Virus record (IMG/VR): IMGVR_UViG_3300001847_000332
Location: 940 to 64,939 of that record
From: a virus
Taxonomy: Duplodnaviria > Caudoviricetes
Reading direction: 5' to 3' (one strand)
Length of the DNA: 64,000 bases
Position numbers and translations under genes: made by a program. Shown here piece by piece: positions 7,112 through 48,258 of this stretch. The notes beneath the pieces are model-generated. The model worked only from the letters and a program-made list of their open reading frames with translations, searched no databases and had not been told where the DNA came from. Positions within the stretch are counted from its first letter, which is position 1, and every line of letters starts with the position of its first letter.

Positions 7112-10100
7112 TCAGAAGAACACGAAGAAATTCCCGTTGGGGATATTCCACCCCGTGTTGTTGCCGCTATCCACTGAGTTTAAGGCATACCAGAATGCCC
7201 CACCTGCGGCCGTGGAATATCTCAAATCCAGGTAATTGGATGTAACCGTGCCCGAGGACTTGGATAGCGTCGCCGGAGTCGTGCTGGTTGCGTTGATGGT
7301 GACCAGATTCCCAGCCGTTCCGCTTACGCTCCAGTTGGTCACGGTCTGCGTGGAGCCGGACTCAAACGTAAATGTCGTAGGCTGGACGGAGTTATCAATT
7401 GTGGTGAACGTATTGCTGCCCGTTACCGTGAGCGCCCCCGCTCCCCCATTTCTCAACGTGCAGTTGTAAGCCGACCCGCCGCCCACAAACGTCTTGGCCG
7501 ACGCGGAGGTCATGGAGATAACGCCCGTGCCTGTGCCTGCTGTGGTAGTGAAGCCCGTCGGGTTGGCGTTGTTAAACGCAGTTGCACCACTGCCGGCAAT
7601 GACAAGCGTTGATCCATTAAAGGTAATATTTTTTGTGCCTGCTGATGTCGATAGCGTTCCAAGCGTTACCGATTTGCCATTTAGGTCAAAGGTGCCATTT
7701 GCCAATGTTAAGTTGCGAGTTGCCCCCATTACAAATGTATCTTGCGGCTGAACTGTCGCTCCTACAGCATTTATGCTAATTGGAAAATCAAACGTCTGGC
7801 CGTTAGCAGTAATTTTTTGCGTGCCAGAAGTTGCATAAAACCATATGGCATTTGCCCCTGAAATAGTCATTCCGCTACTAAACTTCAGATCTCCATAAAC
7901 CACCATCGTTGCGCCATTAGCCAAGGTGCCTGTAAACCCGGTGTAATCCACGTTTTTGAAACCATTAAACATGTTTACCGTATCCGAACCAGCAGTAATT
8001 GCTACGGACACAACATTGCTATCCGTATATCCTGAAGTAACTCTAAAATTTCTTGTTCCTGTCGAACCCGAATAATTTGATACAAACAACGGAGTACCTG
8101 TATATGAAAATCCTGTTGAATTGCTCAAATTGAGAACCGTAGTATTATTCCCAGTGAGCGTAATTTGGCCTGTCCCAAACGCAATTGCTCTTGTATTGGA
8201 GTTGTTTGATACCCATCCTACGCAAGTTAGTGTTTTGTTATTTAAGTCGACCGTTCCGGCTGTCAACGTAAATCCCGAGGACGCTGTAGTTGTAAAATTA
8301 TCTTGCAATGCCACAGTGCCACCACAGTTAACCGTGATGGGCTGGTCTATGGTTACGTTGTTAGAGGTGATTTGCTGGACACCACTAGATGACAAAAATG
8401 ACATTCCGCCATTGCTTGTTGCTACTGTGCACGTACTACTTAATTTTAAGTTTCCGTATATAAATCTATTTGTAGTTGAAGCTGCAACTGTCCCGCTAAA
8501 ACCAGAATAATCAAGATTTTTTATATAAGATGATGATGAAAATGCTACCGTATCAGACCCGGCTGAGATGTTGAAAGAAATTGCATTAGATTCAGACCCG
8601 CCACCGCTTTGATGAACGGCCAACGTGCGTGTTCCGGTACTGCCGCTATACGTTGCATTGACTATTGGCGTCCCGGTATAAGTAAAATTTGTTGCCGTCC
8701 CTGTATTCCAAATTGTTGCGTTATTGCCTGTAAGCGTAATGTTCCCAGTACCAAAAGCAATTGCGCGAGTCGTTGAGACGTTAGACCCGAACAGCACACA
8801 AGTTAGCGTTTTGTTATTGAGGTTAAGCGTACCTGCTACCAACGAGAACCCACTATTGCTTGTTTGCGTTAGGTTGTCTCCGAGCTGCACCGTCCCGCCT
8901 GGGCTATTGACCGTAATTGGCTGTGTCCAAGTGATACCCGCCGACGTGATCGTTTGCGTTGTGCCTTGTCCAGCAAATGTAATTGTATTGGTTCCGCTCA
9001 AGGTCAAACTGGAAAACAGCGTGACGTTACCGTGGATATTTGGTTGGTTGCCAGATGTGGATAGCGTAAATGCCGTCGTTCGATTGGACACCCCATCCGC
9101 CATTTGAATGGTACCAATCCACCAGTTTGTATCAATTGTGACCGTTCCAGCGGTTCCCGCTTCCGTAAAGGTTGCGGTGTCCTGCGGCAACGGAAAATTG
9201 TTGGCCGCTGGCGCCCCGTTGTTCGTTGTGGCCCATCCTGTAGAGGACCAATTCAACGACCCGGCGGCATTCCAATAAACCGTCTTGGGCGAAGCCGTTG
9301 TAATGCTGCTCACGTTTCCGGCGTTGCCCAGTCTCGTTCCTGTCCATGGAGTAGCAACGCTGCCAGCCGCTTTGATGTCACGGAAATCCACATCTGCCAG
9401 AGTTGCTAAAGAACCATTTAACGTCAGTGTCCGCTGTGTGCCAATAGTGTCCGAACCAACTTGAATCCGACGCACCGCTGTATTAGCTGCACCCAGCGTG
9501 AGTGCGCCTGAAATTGTTTGGTTTGAGTCAAACGTAACAATCCTATTCCCGTCAGCAGCCCGGCTTGTAAACGTCAAATTGTTGTACGTATTGGCCCCGG
9601 TAATCGTGAGCGTTCCAGACGCCGTGGAGCTTTGCGTGACGTTGTAATAGGTTAAGCCTCCACCGCTAAACACTTGTGTTGCGGCAGACAAAGTAATGGT
9701 AGATGTCCCGGCACTAAAGGTTAACCCGGTTGTTGTTGAAAACACCCATGCGCTACCACCACCTAATGTAATGGTCGATGAGCCTAAAGTTACACTTTTA
9801 GTTGCCGTGCCAGACGTTTGGAATGCTGCCGCAGATACGCTGTAGTTTCCCGTATCAAATGAGCCATTTACAAAAACTAATGTTCCCGTATTACTTCCGA
9901 TGGACAAAGCACTTCCAAGTGTCCATCCACCCCCGACTCCATCAAAATATATAGATATTGAACCTGGGATTCCTACACCATTGGTGGTTATCGTTTTCCC
10001 TGTTGTTGTGGATTTGAATCTCCACGTTGACCCCGAAGATATTGTTGCGGCGAAATTTGTTGCTGGCAGGGTCATTGACCCATAAATGTCCAAATATCCT

Positions 10101-32113: not shown

Positions 32114-32193
32114 GTATATACGCTGGTAACTCGGCCCCAGCCGAGCCCAGCTAGTTGCCTGCTTACTTTTTCTAACGTTAGACGGAGACGACG

Positions 32194-32409
32194 ATGCACA
32201 CACTATCTACACGTAACCCCATATGCACTGAGTGCGGTATCAACAAGCTACAGCATGCCCGTGCGGCGCTCGGGTACACCGTATGCCTCAGCTGCGGCGA
32301 GCAGATTGCCCAACAACGCAAGCACATAACCGCGCCAATCAATAAGTCCAGCTACATGCTAATCACCGATCTAACCCTGCTCAAACAACTCAACCCTAAG
32401 CGAGCCTAA
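32194..32409 (+). CDS. C4 zinc-finger protein (DksA/TraR-like finger)
   Basis: CTECG...ARAALGYTVCLSCG. Confidence 0.65.
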   Translation: MHTLSTRNPICTECGINKLQHARAALGYTVCLSCGEQIAQQRKHITAPINKSSYMLITDLTLLKQLNPKRA

Positions 32410-34616: not shown

Positions 34617-34626
34617 GGAGACGACG

Positions 34627-35031
34627 ATGCAGATTAAAACAAGTGAGCTGCGTGACGCTGCGCTCGACTGGGCTGTGGGGTTTGCACAATGTATGGAGGC
34701 GACAGGTGGCAAGCCCATACAGGCTCGAGACCTCATGGCCGCTGCCGTGCGTAACGGTATAGCGAGCTACTCGACCGACTGGTCACAAGCCGGGCCGATC
34801 ATCGAGCGGGAGAGTATAGACATTCAGAAAGGCAACCCGCTGTACTTCCCGAAAGGTAATGAGCACGGCGACTACTACGAACCACTGTGGATCGCCGGAG
34901 GTAAGCATGGCAGGACGCCGCTTGAAGCTGCTATGCGCTGCTATGTAGCGAGAAAGCTGGGCAACGAAGTAGATGTACCCGACGAACTTCTAACGTTAGA
35001 CGGAGACGACGATGAAAAAGCAAACGGTTGA
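34627..35031 (+). CDS. NinX/DUF2591-like protein
   Basis: IKTSEL..AALDWAV...YSTDWSQAGPIIERE...TPLEAAMRCYV. Confidence 0.85.
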   Translation: MQIKTSELRDAALDWAVGFAQCMEATGGKPIQARDLMAAAVRNGIASYSTDWSQAGPIIERESIDIQKGNPLYFPKGNEHGDYYEPLWIAGGKHGRTPLEAAMRCYVARKLGNEVDVPDELLTLDGDDDEKANG

Positions 35032-39600: not shown

Positions 39601-40149
39601 ATGGGCAACGGTGTGAGCAGAACGTATCCAGTAGGGATTATTAAGCACAGCCCGACGAGAGTTAGCTTCGGCAAACCCGAAGTTCGGGTATATAACCGAG
39701 AAGAGTGGGAGACAAAACCGTTGCTCAACACTCATGAAGTACGCCGCATCGAAGCCAAGATAAAAGCGGCTGCGGTGCGGCCTATTGAGCCTCAGTGCCG
39801 ATTACCAGAAATTGAGTTGCCAAAACCAAAATGGTGGCAGAAATTACTGCGTACATCTCTTGAAGATCAGCTCGGACTTTTGCTTGGCTCTTGTTTAGTG
39901 GCTGGCGCGGCGACGATATTTATGGGGCCAGTAAGTTTTGTTCTTCCAGCAGCAGTAATAGGTTTCATGCTTGTCAGCGCAGCATATAAAGCGACTGCAA
40001 AAAAACTCCCCACTGAAGCAGAAATCATGGCAAGAAGAAAAGCAGCACAGCATTTAATTAAGTTGGCGAATAAATACAGACGGGCAGGGCTGCATATTGA
40101 GGCCAAACTGTATGCAGATATGGCACAAAAACAATTGAGGATAAAATGA
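39601..40149 (+). CDS. membrane protein (two TM segments)
   Basis: 182 aa, AAGGA RBS. Confidence 0.65.
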   Translation: MGNGVSRTYPVGIIKHSPTRVSFGKPEVRVYNREEWETKPLLNTHEVRRIEAKIKAAAVRPIEPQCRLPEIELPKPKWWQKLLRTSLEDQLGLLLGSCLVAGAATIFMGPVSFVLPAAVIGFMLVSAAYKATAKKLPTEAEIMARRKAAQHLIKLANKYRRAGLHIEAKLYADMAQKQLRIK

Positions 40150-40343
40150 CAGACCAAGAAATGCACCAATTCAATGCGCTCCGTAAGGGATTGAATGCCA
40201 CCTGCTTAGTTATAAAGCGCTTGCTAGCTGAGCGACACTCTATACCCATGACAGACCCGCGTATTGATGAGCTAACAATCAAACTGGTAAATGCCGCCGC
40301 TGATATGTTTGAAGCTGACGCGAGAAAGGATAACTTGCAATGA
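40146..40343 (+). CDS. hypothetical protein
   Basis: 65 aa, coupled. Confidence 0.6.
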   Translation: MTDQEMHQFNALRKGLNATCLVIKRLLAERHSIPMTDPRIDELTIKLVNAAADMFEADARKDNLQ

Positions 40344-40714
40344 ACCTACGCGAAGCAGCACAACAGGCGCTTGAGGCGTTGAGCGTGTTGAAGCCCGACA
40401 ATTGGGAAGATAAAGAATTGCAAATCCAAGCATGGGAGGCCCTTCGCGCCGCGCTATCTGAAGAAGCCATGCAACGCCTGACGGATGTGCAGCAGGAGAT
40501 GGAGCCTGCAATTACAAGAACTGAACGAGGACTGATTTTGCACGTTGGGTGGGATGACATTCCGGCAGGGGCCAAGCTATATCTCTATCCACCAAAGCGA
40601 GAATGGGTTGGGCTGACGGATGAGGATATGAAAGAGATTTTTATCTACGCCGGAGATACAGCAAAGCGTGTTGCCCGCGCCATCGAAGCCAAGCTGAAGG
40701 AGAAAAATTCATGA
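40340..40714 (+). CDS. hypothetical phage protein
   Basis: LREAAQQALEAL...REWVGLTDE...ARAIEAKLKEKN mosaic motifs. Confidence 0.7.
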   Translation: MNLREAAQQALEALSVLKPDNWEDKELQIQAWEALRAALSEEAMQRLTDVQQEMEPAITRTERGLILHVGWDDIPAGAKLYLYPPKREWVGLTDEDMKEIFIYAGDTAKRVARAIEAKLKEKNS

Positions 40715-43180: not shown

Positions 43181-43256
43181 TGGTGCTGGCGGAAGGAATC
43201 GAACCCTCGACCGCTCGCTTACAAGGCGAGAGCTCTACCAACTGAGCTACGCCAGC
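43181..43256 (-). tRNA. tRNA-Thr (anticodon UGU), CCA encoded
   Basis: GCTGGCGTAGCTCAGTTGGTAGAGCTCTCGCCTTGTAAGCGAGCGGTCGAGGGTTCGATTCCTTCCGCCAGCACCA: 76 nt, full cloverleaf. Confidence 0.95.
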
Positions 43257-43277: not shown

Positions 43278-45152
43278 ATGCCACAAATACTTGTTTGCGA
43301 CTTTGAAACTTTCTACGACCGCGACTTTAGTTTGTCGAAGCTTACCACGGAGGAGTATGTCCGCGACTCACGGTTTGAAGCCATCGGTTTAGCATTCAAG
43401 CTGAATGATGGCGTTACCACGTGGGTGTCCAAGCCGTCCGTGGCGCGGTGGGTTGCCTCGGTAGATTGGTCGGACAAGATTGTGGTGTGCCAGAACACAG
43501 CGTTTGATGGAGCGATACTGGCATGGCATTACGGCGTGAAGCCGCTGGCGTGGGCGGACACGCTGAGCATGTCCCGTGCGCTGTACCCACACGACAAGTC
43601 GCATAGCCTCAAGGCGCAGGCGGAGCGCATGGGCATCGGTGCCAAGGGCGACGAAGTGCTCAACGCGTTGGGCAAGCACTATGACGATTTCTCAGTCGAA
43701 GAGCTCTCTCGGTACGCCGCGTACTGCGTGAACGACGTAAACCTCACGCACACCCTGTTCACCCGCTACATCGAGCAGGGCTTCCCCAAGCAGGAGCTCA
43801 AGCTCATTGACCTCACCCTGCGCATGTTCATCGAGCCTCGGCTGGTGCTCGACAACGCCGCGCTGGTCGCTCACCTGCAGGCTGTGCGTGAGCATAAGCA
43901 GCAGCTGCTCGACGCCGTGCGTGACCAGCTCATTAACGCTGACCCTGACAATGCCGCGGCTATCCTTTCCGAGGACATCAAGAAGCTCCTCATGTCCAAC
44001 GACAAGTTCGCCGCCCTGCTGCGCCAGCTCGGCATTGAGCCCCCGCTCAAGATCAGCCCCACCACCGGCAAGGAAACCTATGCCTTCGCCAAGACCGACG
44101 AGCCGTTTAAGGAGCTGCAGGAGCACGACGATCTGCGCGTGCAGACACTGGTTGCCGCCCGGCTGGGCAACAAGACCACCCTTGAGGAGACCCGCACCGA
44201 GCGCTTCATCGGTATGTCTGGGCGCGGCGAGTTCCCAGTACCCCTGCGCTACTACGGCGCACACTCGGGACGTTGGTCTGGCCAAGACTCGGTGAACCTG
44301 CAAAACCTCCCCAGCCGAGGGCCTCACGCCAAGAAGCTTAAGAAGGCCATCCGCGCACCCGAGGGCTACATCGTCATCGACTCCGATTCCGCGCAGATCG
44401 AGGCCCGCACCCTTGCGTGGCTCGCCGGGCAGGACGACCTCGTACAGTCATTCCGTGACAAACAGGACGTGTACAAACAGATGGCCAGCTTCATCTACAA
44501 CGTGGCCGAAGATCAAATCACCAAGGAGCAGCGGCAGGTAGGTAAAGTCGTAATTCTCGGGGCAGGTTACGGCGTAGGACACACTAAGCTCAAGCTGTTC
44601 CTCAAGGCCATGGCCGGTGTCGAGGTGTCCGAGGACGAAGCCCGGCGCATCATCAGCGCATACCGTAACCGCTACGCTGCCATTCCGTACCTGTGGGACA
44701 AGGCTAACCGTGCGATTGAGGCGCTGCACGCAGGCCAGACCTTACAGGTCGACGCTATCGGGCTCGTGCACGTTGAGCCGGGCAAGGGCCTGACCCTGCC
44801 GAGCGGCCTGCACATCCAGTACCCAGGCTTGAAGCGCGTGAACCGCGAGAACAAAACCGAGTGGGCGTACGACGCCAAGGGCATCCTCACTCGCGTGTAC
44901 GGCGGGCTGTGTGTTGAGAACTTCACTCAAGCTATCGCCCGCTGCGTTATCGCGGAACAGATGCTGCGCATCCGCCGGCGCTATCCAGTAGTGCTGACTG
45001 TGCACGACTCCATCGCGTGTATTGCTCCGGCGGATGAGCGTGAGCAGGCCACTCAGTATGTCGTCGAGTGTATGTCGTGGAACCCCAAGTGGGCAGTCGG
45101 TTTGCCCCTCGCATGCGAGGCAGGTTCGGGCGATTCCTACGGAGACTGTTGA
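43278..45152 (+). CDS. polA: DNA polymerase family A with 3'-5' exonuclease
   Basis: Exo DFET and NTAFD; motif A DSAQIEAR; motif B RQVGKVVILGAGYG; motif C VHDS. Confidence 0.95.
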   Translation: MPQILVCDFETFYDRDFSLSKLTTEEYVRDSRFEAIGLAFKLNDGVTTWVSKPSVARWVASVDWSDKIVVCQNTAFDGAILAWHYGVKPLAWADTLSMSRALYPHDKSHSLKAQAERMGIGAKGDEVLNALGKHYDDFSVEELSRYAAYCVNDVNLTHTLFTRYIEQGFPKQELKLIDLTLRMFIEPRLVLDNAALVAHLQAVREHKQQLLDAVRDQLINADPDNAAAILSEDIKKLLMSNDKFAALLRQLGIEPPLKISPTTGKETYAFAKTDEPFKELQEHDDLRVQTLVAARLGNKTTLEETRTERFIGMSGRGEFPVPLRYYGAHSGRWSGQDSVNLQNLPSRGPHAKKLKKAIRAPEGYIVIDSDSAQIEARTLAWLAGQDDLVQSFRDKQDVYKQMASFIYNVAEDQITKEQRQVGKVVILGAGYGVGHTKLKLFLKAMAGVEVSEDEARRIISAYRNRYAAIPYLWDKANRAIEALHAGQTLQVDAIGLVHVEPGKGLTLPSGLHIQYPGLKRVNRENKTEWAYDAKGILTRVYGGLCVENFTQAIARCVIAEQMLRIRRRYPVVLTVHDSIACIAPADEREQATQYVVECMSWNPKWAVGLPLACEAGSGDSYGDC

Positions 45153-45184
45153 GGTATAGTCAGGGGCTACCTAAGGACCCTACG

Positions 45185-45838
45185 ATGCTCTCTCATTCAT
45201 ACTCCGCTATTAAGGATTTTGAAGGCTGTCCCCGTCGTTACCATGCGGTTCGCATACTGAAGCAGTTCAAGCAGTCAGATACTGAAGCCACACTGTACGG
45301 CACAGCTGTACACAAGGCGTTTGAAGAATACATCCGCGACGGCAAGCCGCTTCCCGAACAGTTTAAGTTGTTCGAGCCATACGTCGAGCCGCTCAAGAAC
45401 ATTAAGGGCACCGTGCTGTGCGAGCAACGAATGGGCATCCGCAAGGACTTTACTCCTTGCGAGTTTTTCGACAAGAACGTGTGGTTTCGCGGCGTGCCCG
45501 ACTTCTTGGCGGTGAACAAAACCAAAGCCCGGATAGCCGACTACAAGACCGGGAAGTCTGCGCGCTTTGCCGACCCCGACCAGCTCGAGCTGATGGCAGC
45601 GATGGTGATGGCACATCATCCTGAGGTTACACATGTGTCCGGGATATTGTTGTTTGTCGTAGCTCGAGATGTGGTCAAAGCAGAATTTTCGCGCGACATG
45701 CTTCCAAACATCTGGTCAAAATGGGCAGGCCGCGCTAGTATGATTGAGTCAGCTGTGGATCACGGCGCATGGGGGGCTAAACCCTCCCCGCTGTGCCGGT
45801 TCTGTCCGTTGACGCAAGAAGCATGTGAACACAGATAG
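45185..45838 (+). CDS. PD-(D/E)XK (Cas4/RecB-like) exonuclease
   Basis: SYS....EGCPR, GTAVH, RGVPD...IADYKTG, QL, C-terminal CRFCP....C. Confidence 0.88.
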   Translation: MLSHSYSAIKDFEGCPRRYHAVRILKQFKQSDTEATLYGTAVHKAFEEYIRDGKPLPEQFKLFEPYVEPLKNIKGTVLCEQRMGIRKDFTPCEFFDKNVWFRGVPDFLAVNKTKARIADYKTGKSARFADPDQLELMAAMVMAHHPEVTHVSGILLFVVARDVVKAEFSRDMLPNIWSKWAGRASMIESAVDHGAWGAKPSPLCRFCPLTQEACEHR

Positions 45839-45846
45839 TGCAACAT

Positions 45847-46390
45847 GGCCCCCAGCCACCGGTGGGGTAAAACAGTGGCAGCTGTAGGTAGGACTGCTCG
45901 GATCATCAGCGTCTCCCCCTACTGATACAGCAGGCCCCCGTCTCTCCGGGGGGCCAACACGCATGAGGATTGGCGCATAAATATCGGTCATGGGGAATGA
46001 AGTCGCGCTCTGGGTTCGAAACCAACGTGCACTGCCCTTCATCCCGATTGAGCGTAACGGATCGCAACCGTAAACAGTCCTCAACCGTGTTGGTGAATGC
46101 GCAAGCTGATGCGCAACGAGTTGTGTCTGATACGTGGCGTGGCTGGGACAGTGCCGAATCGGTAAGGTTGAGTGCCCCAACGAATAACACAGACTGGTCA
46201 CACGTCTTAATGCAGAAATGCCGGAGATCAGCACCGGCCACCAACACTTGACCGCAGGGAGAGACCTGCCTGATTAGGGAGCCGGATATTCCTTTGACAC
46301 CTCGGAAAGACGAGGGCTAACACACATGCGTCCTGAGCGGCTAGGTGGGGGAACACCTAGTGCGCGCCCCAAGGGCGCAGCCGTGTTAGC
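45847..46390 (+). ncRNA. cluster of structured RNA modules
   Basis: No credible ORF; back-to-back helices, a pseudoknot, kissing loops and duplicated scaffolds (see findings). Confidence 0.65.
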
Positions 46391-46432
46391 ATAAGGTAAA
46401 AGTTTTTGGCTTACGCCAACCGGGATCGCTAA

Positions 46433-46690
46433 GTGGCTACGAAAAAACGTAATTATGCGCGTGAATATGCTCTGTATCAGGGTACCCCGGAGCAACTGAA
46501 GAAACAGTCCGAACGGCACAAGGCCCGGCGTGCCTACGAAAAGGCTAACGGCAAGCTGCCGGACAGTATGGATGTGGACCACGTGAAGCCCTTGAGCAAG
46601 GGCGGAACCAGTAAACTAAGCAACCTACGGGCCGTGCCCAAGTCGAAGAACAGAAGCTTTGCGCGTACCAGTACGAACAAGGTTAAGTAG
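46433..46690 (+). CDS. HNH endonuclease
   Basis: DVDHVKPLSKGG....NLR......NRS. Confidence 0.85.
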   Translation: MATKKRNYAREYALYQGTPEQLKKQSERHKARRAYEKANGKLPDSMDVDHVKPLSKGGTSKLSNLRAVPKSKNRSFARTSTNKVK

Positions 46691-46713
46691 TCTATACAAC
46701 CAGTAGGACGTTT

Positions 46714-48258
46714 ATGCAGATCGTGGACAACCGCGCGCTGCTCTTCGTCACGCGCAAGGCAGATCAGATTACTGCCTTGATCCCCAAAAGCCGCATCCTT
46801 GCACGCAGTGGTGACAAGGCGCAGGTGCTCGTGAATTGGGGGCCGGACGAGGTGCAGATACTCCGCAACCTCAAGATCAAAGCCCCGCCTAACCCGATAC
46901 TGGGTAGGTACGAATGGCCGGGCGTATACAAACCCTTCGAGCATCAGCGCACTACTGCAGCATTCCTTGCGTCACACCCTCGGTGCTTTTGTTTCAATGA
47001 TCCCGGCACAGGCAAGACCAGTGCTGCGGCGTGGGCTGCCGACTACCTGATGAATCAAGGCAAGGTTAAGCGCGTGCTGGTGGTGTGCCCGGTGTCGATC
47101 ATGGACACAGCATGGCGGTCTGACTTGTTTAAGACCGTGATGCACCGCACTGTTGGGATTGCGATTGGGTCGCGAGAAAAGCGCGAGGCCATCATCAACG
47201 GGCGCTACGAATTCGTCATCATCAATTTCGATGGCGTAAAGATAGTCACTCCGGCACTCGCGGCAGGAGGGTTTGATCTTATCATCGTCGACGAAGCCAA
47301 CGCCATCAAAAGCGTATCCACCGACCGCTGGAAAGCGCTCGCCTCGCTTGTGCGCGCGGACACCCGGCTGTGGCTGATGACCGGCACCCCTGCCTCCCAA
47401 TCTCCATTGGATGCGTATGGGCTGGCCAAGCTCGTCAACCCAGACGGCGTGCCGCGCTTTTTTGGCGCGTGGCGTGATAAGGTGATGGTCAAGATCACGC
47501 AATACAAATGGGTGCCCAAGAATGAGTCTCAGGCTATTGTGCATGCAGCGTTACAGCCGGCTATTCGGTACACGAAAGAAGAGTGCTTGGACCTGCCCGA
47601 TCTGCTCTATGCTACCCGGGAAGTGCCCCTTACACCGCAGCAGCAAAAGTACTACAACGCCATCAAGCAGGAAATGATTACTCGCGCGGCAGGTGAGGAG
47701 ATCACCGCCGCGAATGCCGCGTCAATGCTCAACAAGCTGCTGCAGCTGTCCCAAGGTGCGGTATACACCGACACCAAGGAGATCGTGCAGTTCGACATCA
47801 AGCCCCGACTGGCTGAGCTCATAAGTATCATTGAGCAGACTGACTATAAGGTGCTGGTGTTTGTGCCGTTTCGGCACGTGCTCGAGATGCTTCGCGACGC
47901 CCTGACTGGCTACACCGTGGAGGTTATTCACGGAGGTGTGCCAGCTACGGCGCGGGCTGAGATCATCAAGCGGTTCCAGACGCAGGACAACCCGCGCATC
48001 CTGCTCATGGTGCCGCAGGCTACTGCGCATGGCATCACACTAACCCGGGCAGATCAGGTGGTATGGTGGGGGCCTATCCCGTCCACCGAGTATTACCTGC
48101 AAGCTAACGCCCGCGCCCACCGGCAGGGCCAGACACGCAACGTAACCGTCACGCACCTGCAGGGCAGTCCGGTGGAGAAGCGTCTCTACACCATGCTGCA
48201 GGGCAAGATCGACATGCACCAAGCGCTCGTCGAGTTGTACAAACAAGAAATAAGTTGA
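46714..48258 (+). CDS. SNF2-like superfamily 2 helicase
   Basis: DPGTGKT, IVDEA, MTGTP, HGITLT, QANARAHRQGQ. Confidence 0.92.
   Translation: MQIVDNRALLFVTRKADQITALIPKSRILARSGDKAQVLVNWGPDEVQILRNLKIKAPPNPILGRYEWPGVYKPFEHQRTTAAFLASHPRCFCFNDPGTGKTSAAAWAADYLMNQGKVKRVLVVCPVSIMDTAWRSDLFKTVMHRTVGIAIGSREKREAIINGRYEFVIINFDGVKIVTPALAAGGFDLIIVDEANAIKSVSTDRWKALASLVRADTRLWLMTGTPASQSPLDAYGLAKLVNPDGVPRFFGAWRDKVMVKITQYKWVPKNESQAIVHAALQPAIRYTKEECLDLPDLLYATREVPLTPQQQKYYNAIKQEMITRAAGEEITAANAASMLNKLLQLSQGAVYTDTKEIVQFDIKPRLAELISIIEQTDYKVLVFVPFRHVLEMLRDALTGYTVEVIHGGVPATARAEIIKRFQTQDNPRILLMVPQATAHGITLTRADQVVWWGPIPSTEYYLQANARAHRQGQTRNVTVTHLQGSPVEKRLYTMLQGKIDMHQALVELYKQEIS

Follow-up and report, generated by a model that had tools for sequence, protein, structure and literature searches.

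The structured element and its locus

The DNA analysed here, called the window, is a stretch of 64,000 nucleotides (nt) from a virus of the Caudoviricetes (positions 940 to 64,939 of IMG/VR record IMGVR_UViG_3300001847_000332) and makes up almost all of that 64.9-kb record, which has direct terminal repeats. Its replication module, which includes a family A DNA polymerase and a DUF927 primase-helicase, contains a gap of 594 nt (45839-46432) without a credible open reading frame (ORF). The gap is bounded upstream by a gene for a PD-(D/E)XK nuclease (45068-45838, +; Pfam PF12705, E 1e-16) and downstream by one for a small HNH endonuclease (46433-46690, +; Pfam HNH_3 and HNH), which a SNF2 helicase gene follows; nuclease, HNH and SNF2 genes are all on the + strand. 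The subject of this report is a predicted structured RNA of about 115 nt in this gap (45845-45960, +), composed of a pseudoknot, two hairpins (H2 and H3) and an AACAC tail. A preliminary description of the locus had noted the two hairpins, at 45881-45955, and had proposed that their loops are antisense to early translation starts of the phage itself.

The element starts 7 nt past the nuclease stop codon, and the pseudoknot 10 nt past it. Stem S1 of the pseudoknot pairs CCCC (45849-45852, +) with GGGG (45864-45867), and stem S2 pairs GCCAC (45855-45859, +) with GUGGC (45875-45879). Because the S2 5′ strand sits in the S1 loop, the two stems make an H-type pseudoknot. The junction CGGU (AGGU in most relatives) and the S1 3′ strand together occupy 45860-45867 (+), where alignments A1 and A4 show almost no variation in GGTGG. 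The A-rich strand UAAAACA and the S2 3′ strand follow at 45868-45879 (+), with AAAAC conserved in 32 aligned rows and present also in the consensus of the Rfam family RF03044, discussed below. The family pattern is S1 NCCC/GGGN′ and S2 GCCRC/GYGGC, with conserved unpaired CA, (A/C)GGU and A-rich AAAAC. Hairpin H2 (45881-45931, +) is long and bulged: its stems are 45881-45892 with 45918-45931, its bulge is G45924-A45925, and its apical part (45893-45917) ends in GUCUCCC (45911-45917, +), of which TCTCCC is shared unchanged by 10 of 10 close relatives and CUCCC is predicted to be single-stranded. Hairpin H3 (45933-45955, +) has a conserved stem and the loop GUCUCUCC, and the AACAC tail follows it.

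A search with the nuclease protein yielded 56 related loci in viral contigs (given L numbers here), and in 10 of them (L002-L010 and L055) a conserved stretch lies directly 3′ of a gene, this being the nuclease gene in L002-L010. In the alignment of close relatives the stems change compensatorily and some unpaired letters are invariant. A covariance model, R1, was built from seven sequences, and three pattern scans brought in further members; R1 matches 32 places in 33 sources at E ≤ 0.001. These 32 homologues are phage contigs, betaproteobacterial prophages, and phage HK022 and P22-like phages. The window copy scores 104.3 bits (E 1e-26) and is conserved in L002-L010.

Across the 32 rows, 94.7% of 716 cells form standard pairs, compared with 64.9% in shuffled rows and 35-50% when partners are slid, and changes on both sides occur at 23 of 26 pairs; an earlier alifold of the seven sequences had given compensatory pairs at 10 of 24. 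Compensatory changes fall at 4 of the 5 pairs of S2 (98.1% of cells paired), at all 12 pairs of H2 (96.5%) and at all 5 pairs of the H3 stem (helix 4). S1 covaries as well, although it is absent from the search model R1 (outer pair: CG 10, GU 7, AU 4, GC 4, other 6). G-U pairs are frequent, with 15 at one H2 pair, and this, together with co-orientation with the flanking genes everywhere, points to the + strand as the RNA strand. On this comparative evidence, 45845-45960 (+) encodes a folded RNA module of about 115 nt. The two hairpins of the preliminary description are exactly H2 and H3, helices 3 and 4 of the covarying structure, and its claim of an RNA-level element stands as far as the structure goes; the observation as a whole was confirmed only in part, and the reading placed on it is only in part supported.

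Two other explanations of the conservation were considered. A double-stranded DNA site, whether an HNH target or a packaging site, was rejected because the stems covary, with G-U pairs on the + strand. A coding reading was rejected as well: in the window and in L006 the frame past the nuclease stop is open for about 30 codons, but L004 has an in-frame stop, and the substitutions are of the compensatory and not the synonymous kind.

Hairpin loops and translation starts

According to the preliminary description, the first loop covers both the Shine-Dalgarno (SD) sequence and the AUG of a repeated early start motif. The letters are as described: CATCAGCGTCTCC is present at 45904-45916, GGAGACGACGATG occurs exactly three times on the + strand (32184-32196, 34617-34629 and 35002-35014), and the reverse complement of the loop matches it at 11 of 13 positions. 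In a crude gene list, every copy of GGAGACGACGATG is placed ahead of the ATG of a small ORF on the + strand. When the 13-mer was sought on both strands with up to two mismatches, five matches were found against 1.14 expected, three being the repeated motif itself, one another gene start (36007) and one the antisense loop; a single antisense match against about 1.1 expected on both strands is not beyond chance. Nor are the 13 nt one open loop, because UCAGCGU is mostly paired in the predicted ensemble (predicted unpaired probability 0.06-0.38, against 0.69-0.94 for CUCCC).

Pairing of 45893-45921 with 93 start regions from the crude gene call was evaluated with RNAduplex, using 300 dinucleotide shuffles of the loop as controls. 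The three proposed targets rank 2, 18 and 23 of 93; for 274 of the 300 shuffled loops, the best target anywhere among the 93 is at least as good. Pairing as good with the three sites themselves was reached by one shuffled loop in 300, and the match is still not significant because there are about 90 different start motifs to choose from. Covariation between loop and target is also missing: the half that would pair with CGACGAUG differs in every close relative, and the closest complete relative, G159, keeps two near-copies of the start motif that its loop does not match. With a match at chance level and no covariation, we do not regard the element as a specific antisense regulator of these three early starts, and GGAGACGACGATG is not supported as a target. 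Two of the GGAGACGACGATG sites (32172-32196 and 34990-35014) share 22 nt upstream of the ATG, among them the 13-mer and a preceding palindrome, CTAACGTTAG; this repeated regulatory site is probably what the preliminary description called the palindrome system.

What does hold of the anti-SD character of this loop is its CUCC, which is conserved across the family; the half facing the start codon is neither conserved nor predicted to be unpaired. CUCC occurs in H2 in 21 of 28 family rows, compared with 6.1 expected from shuffles. The rows with CUCC belong to about nine distinct clades; two more clades carry different pyrimidine tracts. In these sequences the anti-SD-like character of the loop is real and conserved, but generic. 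SD sequences of the GGAGAC type were considered as a target class. GGAGAC followed after 2-8 nt by ATG or GTG occurs at seven sites, all in the + strand block (30651-53150) and none in the two − strand blocks. The class was rejected, with ATG-only counts of 5 and 3 in genomes with the element against 4, 4 and 1 in genomes without it; given counts this similar in relatives that lack the element, we do not link these sites to the RNA. A short anti-SD match to start sites of the phage itself has to be weighed against relatives, and here the conserved part is the generic CUCC rather than the target-specific half.

The conserved CUCC would suit a small RNA (sRNA) acting in trans, whose exposed segment pairs with the SD of phage or host mRNAs other than the three proposed targets and blocks their translation. 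The enrichment of CUCC in H2 and its predicted single-stranded state in the window are in keeping with this, as are the terminator-like hairpin and T run that end the L092 copy in the manner of a discrete sRNA gene, the RNA-library contigs that span the element, its sporadic, moron-like distribution, which fits an accessory gene, and the single shuffled loop in 300 that pairs as well with the three sites. That last figure, however, is post hoc among some 90 start motifs, and loop and motif do not covary. A scan of the + strand of 45500-46800 found no promoter or terminator of its own, most members are without a terminator, a 4-nt CUCC pairs with nearly any SD, its complement GGAG being present 261 times on the sense strands, and GGAGAC-type starts are equally frequent in relatives without the element. 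We consider a trans-acting sRNA unlikely. The 3′ end of 16S rRNA carries a CCUCC core, and the CUCC(UU) segment resembles that end. A bolder proposal, which we also hold to be doubtful, is that a widespread phage RNA displays CUCC(UU) on a pseudoknot scaffold and captures SD sequences in trans, so redirecting translation in the course of infection, or that the pseudoknot, as an aptamer for some signal, gates that segment.

The second loop was described as perfectly complementary to GGAGAGAC at 46258-46265, and it is: the complement at 45940-45947 extends over all eight positions. The loop itself, GUCUCUCC, is not conserved; 12 rows, from relatives of the window to HK022, have GAAAGA closed by G-C in its place. 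Compared with the family loop GGAAAGAC, the window H3 loop (45940-45947) matches at 7 of 8 positions as the reverse complement and at 2 of 8 when read directly, and the H3 loop of the sister genome, L006, has the same inverted tendency. From these sequences we infer a DNA inversion of the H3 loop in the common ancestor of the window and L006. GGAGAGAC is carried by the hairpin GCAGG-GAGAGA-CCUGC (46254-46269, +), which has the family loop type in the normal orientation and lies inside a weak second R1 match (46247-46323; 14.9 bits, E 0.085). The complementarity is explained by the inverted form of the H3 loop and the normal orientation of 46254-46269; we estimate the chance of an 8 of 8 complement within one 594-nt gap at about 0.01. 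A canonical H3-type hairpin with its tail, GACA CCUCG GAAAGA CGAGG GCUAACAC, follows at 46296-46323 (+) and is of the same sequence type as H3 of L004, L007, L060, L094 and HK022.

Kissing between the H2 apex and the H3 loop was tried and rejected: the longest complementary runs over 13 members total 55, compared with 56.6 ± 3.3 in shuffles (P 0.72), which composition alone accounts for. The remainder of the gap (45961-46432) is also structured, the whole 594 nt folding with a z of −2.27, and has four short conserved islands in common with the insert in L004. Further hairpins lie at 46220-46238, 46254-46269, 46300-46315, 46342-46361 and 46363-46380, and a T-loop-like GGGTTCGAAACC is present near 46023. 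This region may be a second RNA, or may hold remnants of further copies of the element. Tandem, weaker second copies are found at L004 4826-4948, L068 230-325 and L083 253-359 (E 0.003-0.015). Elsewhere in the window there is a weak R1 match on the − strand (7155-7220; 11.3 bits, E 0.83) with GGCCGCAGGTGGGGCA inside a 1085-amino-acid ORF, which is probably due to chance.

Relatives, genomic position and RNA-library contigs

Coliphage HK022 carries a copy of the element at 39762-39881 (R1 37.7 bits, E 3e-9), about 180 nt upstream of an HNH gene (40060-40413) and far from the put sites; phage L and BTP1 are also matched by R1. By blastn the HK022 copy is found in 165 phage records at 90-100% identity, including P22, HK620, Sf6, ST64T, phage L and BTP1. 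In these records it follows Rz (lysis genes) or rha and precedes pid or packaging genes, and in most of them it is unannotated or lies beneath hypothetical ORFs. A blastn search with the gap of the window against 50,697 phage records gave no match, and searches with the L079 and L085 elements likewise gave none. A pattern scan of species genomes located the element in contigs of Nitrotoga, Azoarcus, Thauera, Aromatoleum and Oxalobacter. A search of the literature returned nothing on this element; a transcriptome study of BTP1 mentions nine candidate non-coding RNAs (PMC7067206). In one enterobacterial prophage contig (L110; 1745-1933) an HK022-type copy is accompanied by isrK and a C4 antisense RNA.

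The 5′ part of the element, in a longer form and without the pseudoknot, is already in Rfam as the Proteo-phage-1 motif (RF03044), which originates from a comparative-genomics survey (PMC5737381); the name was not found in the literature searched or in the main text of that survey, whose supplement probably describes the motif. In the RF03044 consensus, GCCGG lies in a hairpin loop and AAAAACA-CCGGC-AGCC comes next; the equivalent in the window's family is GCCRC, with the complementary word, and then CAG(CC), after the A-rich strand. The Rfam model itself annotates neither the pseudoknot, H2 nor H3, and 3′ of it the RF03044 members seen here have a hairpin of the H2 type and another whose loop is G(G/A)AAGAC. 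The window copy is without the 5′ hairpin of RF03044 (CCAGG...CCUGG), which appears in neither alignment A1 nor A4, and its S1 is short (4 bp), compared with a longer S1 in the RF03044 consensus.

Several loci connect the two forms. RF03044 scores above its cut-off in 8 of 9 loci checked (51.9-82.1 bits); two loci that pass, L142 (65.3 bits) and L200 (51.9 bits), carry the window-type CCCAGCCGGCGGTGG, and in L200 the same pseudoknot is matched by R1 (28.4 bits). In HK022 a sub-threshold RF03044 match falls exactly on the copy of the element (16.8 bits, against a cut-off of 42). A scan for the RF03044 consensus tail found it in at least 120 places. Both RF03044 and homologues of the window element occur in phages and prophages of Proteobacteria, the homologues being found in betaproteobacterial contigs and enterobacterial phages. 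An RF03044 search of 151 genomes of one class gave no match, and because the controls likewise gave none, it was uninformative. We read the window element as a minimal, divergent variant of the Proteo-phage-1 motif, and the minimal core, the pseudoknot plus H2 with CUCC, is newly defined here. To our knowledge RF03044 has no known function, so membership says nothing on mechanism.

Among complete (98-100%) related genomes the element is present in 2 of 5, and among the nuclease loci in 10 of 56. It invariably lies between genes, in the same orientation as its neighbours, and its position shifts within a conserved gene order: nuclease-element-HNH in the clade of the window, HNH-element-SNF2 in L060 and L062, and SNF2-element-DUF7307 gene in L055 and L085. 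Other copies lie in the head module (L058, L061), after a RecT-like gene (L094, L096), between capsid and HNH genes (L092), or about 290 nt downstream of a Cro-like gene (L078). RF03044-type copies follow NinG and a weak Q-like gene (PF06323 below its cut-off, E 1.9e-4) and precede holin-like genes, often just 3′ of a terminator-like hairpin. The element often ends 20-30 nt before the next start codon; the SD of the HNH gene is within about 20 nt of it in L002, L003 and L006, and in L085 an SD and ATG lie about 20 nt past H2. L085 also has a near-consensus promoter-like site (TTGACA-16-TATATT, 11 of 12) whose end is 5 nt upstream of the pseudoknot, and in L092, ahead of an HNH gene, the H3 hairpin has a T run and resembles a terminator. 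A linkage to tRNA genes, striking in L116, L120 and L138, was not upheld, with a same-strand tRNA within 700 nt downstream in just 4 of 25 distinct RF03044-like loci.

In Azoarcus, Aromatoleum and Thauera prophages and one viral contig (L093 5421-5527, L097, L098 and L067 368-441), the pseudoknot lies inside a long open frame that reads PQPEVGENTGS or PQPQVGENSGT, with S2 still compensatory. These copies are either an RNA embedded in a coding linker or ORFs over-called in high-G+C DNA.

Another reading is a riboswitch-like leader that senses a ligand or factor, in which the pseudoknot would serve as an aptamer or protein site and H3 or a downstream SD as a variable expression platform. In its favour, the stems covary and the unpaired CA, AGGU and AAAAC show strong conservation in phages that range from 46-74% G+C, the sequel varies from a terminator-like H3 (L092) to an SD directly after the element (L085, L082, L055, L002), and the promoter-like site of L085 is immediately upstream. 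The downstream genes, however, are mutually unrelated, and hundreds of nt separate the element from the next gene in the window, L004, L007 and L010. A permissive Rfam search of 45600-46750 gave nothing meaningful, with no known riboswitch or ribozyme family at E ≤ 10, and a Pfam scan of 10 ORFs of the + strand block returned AAA and DUF2201 families only, which indicate no metabolite pathway. We regard such a leader as quite improbable. ARAGORN, and Rfam at gathering scores, have a sole match in the window, a tRNA-Thr (UGU; 43181-43256, −), whose strand is opposite to that of the genes around it (+) and whose end is 22 nt short of the DNA polymerase start.

The put RNA of HK022 is described as having two stems, the first with a minor-groove triplex (PMC9378689). 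A put-like RNA that modifies the transcribing RNA polymerase, by antitermination or antipausing, would match the element as a cis-located phage RNA with a compact core of a helix and a third strand, followed by a second long stem. The copy downstream of the Cro-like gene in L078, and RF03044-type copies with NinG and the weak Q-like gene before them and holin-like genes after, are placed as such an RNA might be. We nevertheless judge it very improbable. When the whole HK022 genome, in which the coordinates of putL and putR were not located, was searched with R1 with filters off, the sole significant match was 39762-39881, near the right end, and HK022 would carry the element besides put and Q. 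Terminator-like hairpins stand just upstream of many copies rather than downstream, and the topology differs, being an H-type pseudoknot rather than a hairpin with a third strand.

Contigs from four metatranscriptome runs of one aquatic study match the region without differences, at 45795-45948, 45797-46062, 46116-46355, 46119-46314 and 46489-47000. In these runs no contig falls on 45000-45794, 46063-46115 or 46356-46488, which is not evidence of absence or of relative abundance. The contigs bear on the idea of a self-cleaving ribozyme, or an RNase processing or stability signal, that divides or stabilises a polycistronic mRNA. The intergenic, sporadic and position-shifting occurrence and the conserved pseudoknot core are compatible with it, as are the occasional tandem or partial repeats (window 46247-46323, L004 4826-4948, L068, L083) and the tRNA genes, which are RNase P substrates, that follow some RF03044-type copies (4 of 25). 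Two contigs (45795-45948 and 45797-46062) extend across the pseudoknot at its 5′ edge, with the reservation that contigs do not reveal ends; no Rfam ribozyme family matches at E ≤ 10, and no cleavage site can be named. The probability of such a function appears remote to us.

Proposed action in cis and comparison with known systems

Taking the observed fold, family, accessory and shifting distribution and presence in RNA libraries together, we lean slightly towards a Proteo-phage-1-like module that acts in cis on the operon transcript. The element would be transcribed within the + strand replication-module operon and would control in cis the translation, read-through or processing of what lies downstream, with the pseudoknot as the recognised or sensing core and the CUCC segment as a generic anti-SD-like pairing element. 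The cis mechanism is suggested by the intergenic and co-oriented position, by the frequent spacing of 20-30 nt to a start codon, and by the promoter-like site and the terminator-like H3, each seen once. Taken alone, action in cis on the operon transcript is a tentative proposal, possible but short of probable.

Several points weigh against this proposal. Action in cis is proposed from position only. RF03044 has no match in 45600-46750 at E ≤ 10, and its best match in the whole genome (14.3 bits, gathering cut-off 42 bits) is elsewhere than the element. A core regulatory role for the neighbours is unlikely because the element is accessory (2 of 5 genomes, 10 of 56 loci), and direct control of the HNH SD is implausible in the window, where the next start codon is about 477 nt away from the element. 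Downstream genes that vary between phages (HNH, SNF2, DUF7307, head protease, holin) would be unusual for a metabolite riboswitch. The + strand scan of 45500-46800 showed neither a promoter-like nor a terminator-like site. The RNA-library contigs, all from a single study, indicate presence only, not strand, ends, level or transcription. With regard to the fold, alignment A4 was fitted to the model and so favours helices 2 to 4, and the pair-change counts exceed the number of independent events because the rows are related.

A covarying, sequence-conserved RNA fold to which no function is assigned is thus common to uncultured aquatic phages, betaproteobacterial prophages, HK022, P22, HK620 and Sf6. 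Because copies are placed in genetically tractable phages, this unexplained RNA motif is directly testable.

Three known systems invite comparison. As is proposed for the element, the put RNA of HK022 acts in cis as a structured RNA of a phage operon; it has two stems, and its core contains a triplex (PMC9378689). The window element has neither sequence nor R1 similarity to put, and its topology is different. The c4 antisense RNA of P1- and P7-type phages is a small structured RNA whose loops base-pair with a phage mRNA at its ribosome-binding region. This is the same mode as that of the preliminary proposal; c4 (RF01695) has no match in the window, however, compared with 83.6 bits for the positive control L110, and a conserved loop-target pair of the c4 kind was not found for the element among relatives. 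PreQ1-I type riboswitches are small H-type pseudoknots with an A-rich strand after S1. The window element differs from them in its 4-nt junction between S2 and S1, in having no Rfam match at E ≤ 10, and in the lack of a consistent class of downstream genes; it is likewise a small H-type pseudoknot with an A-rich strand after S1.

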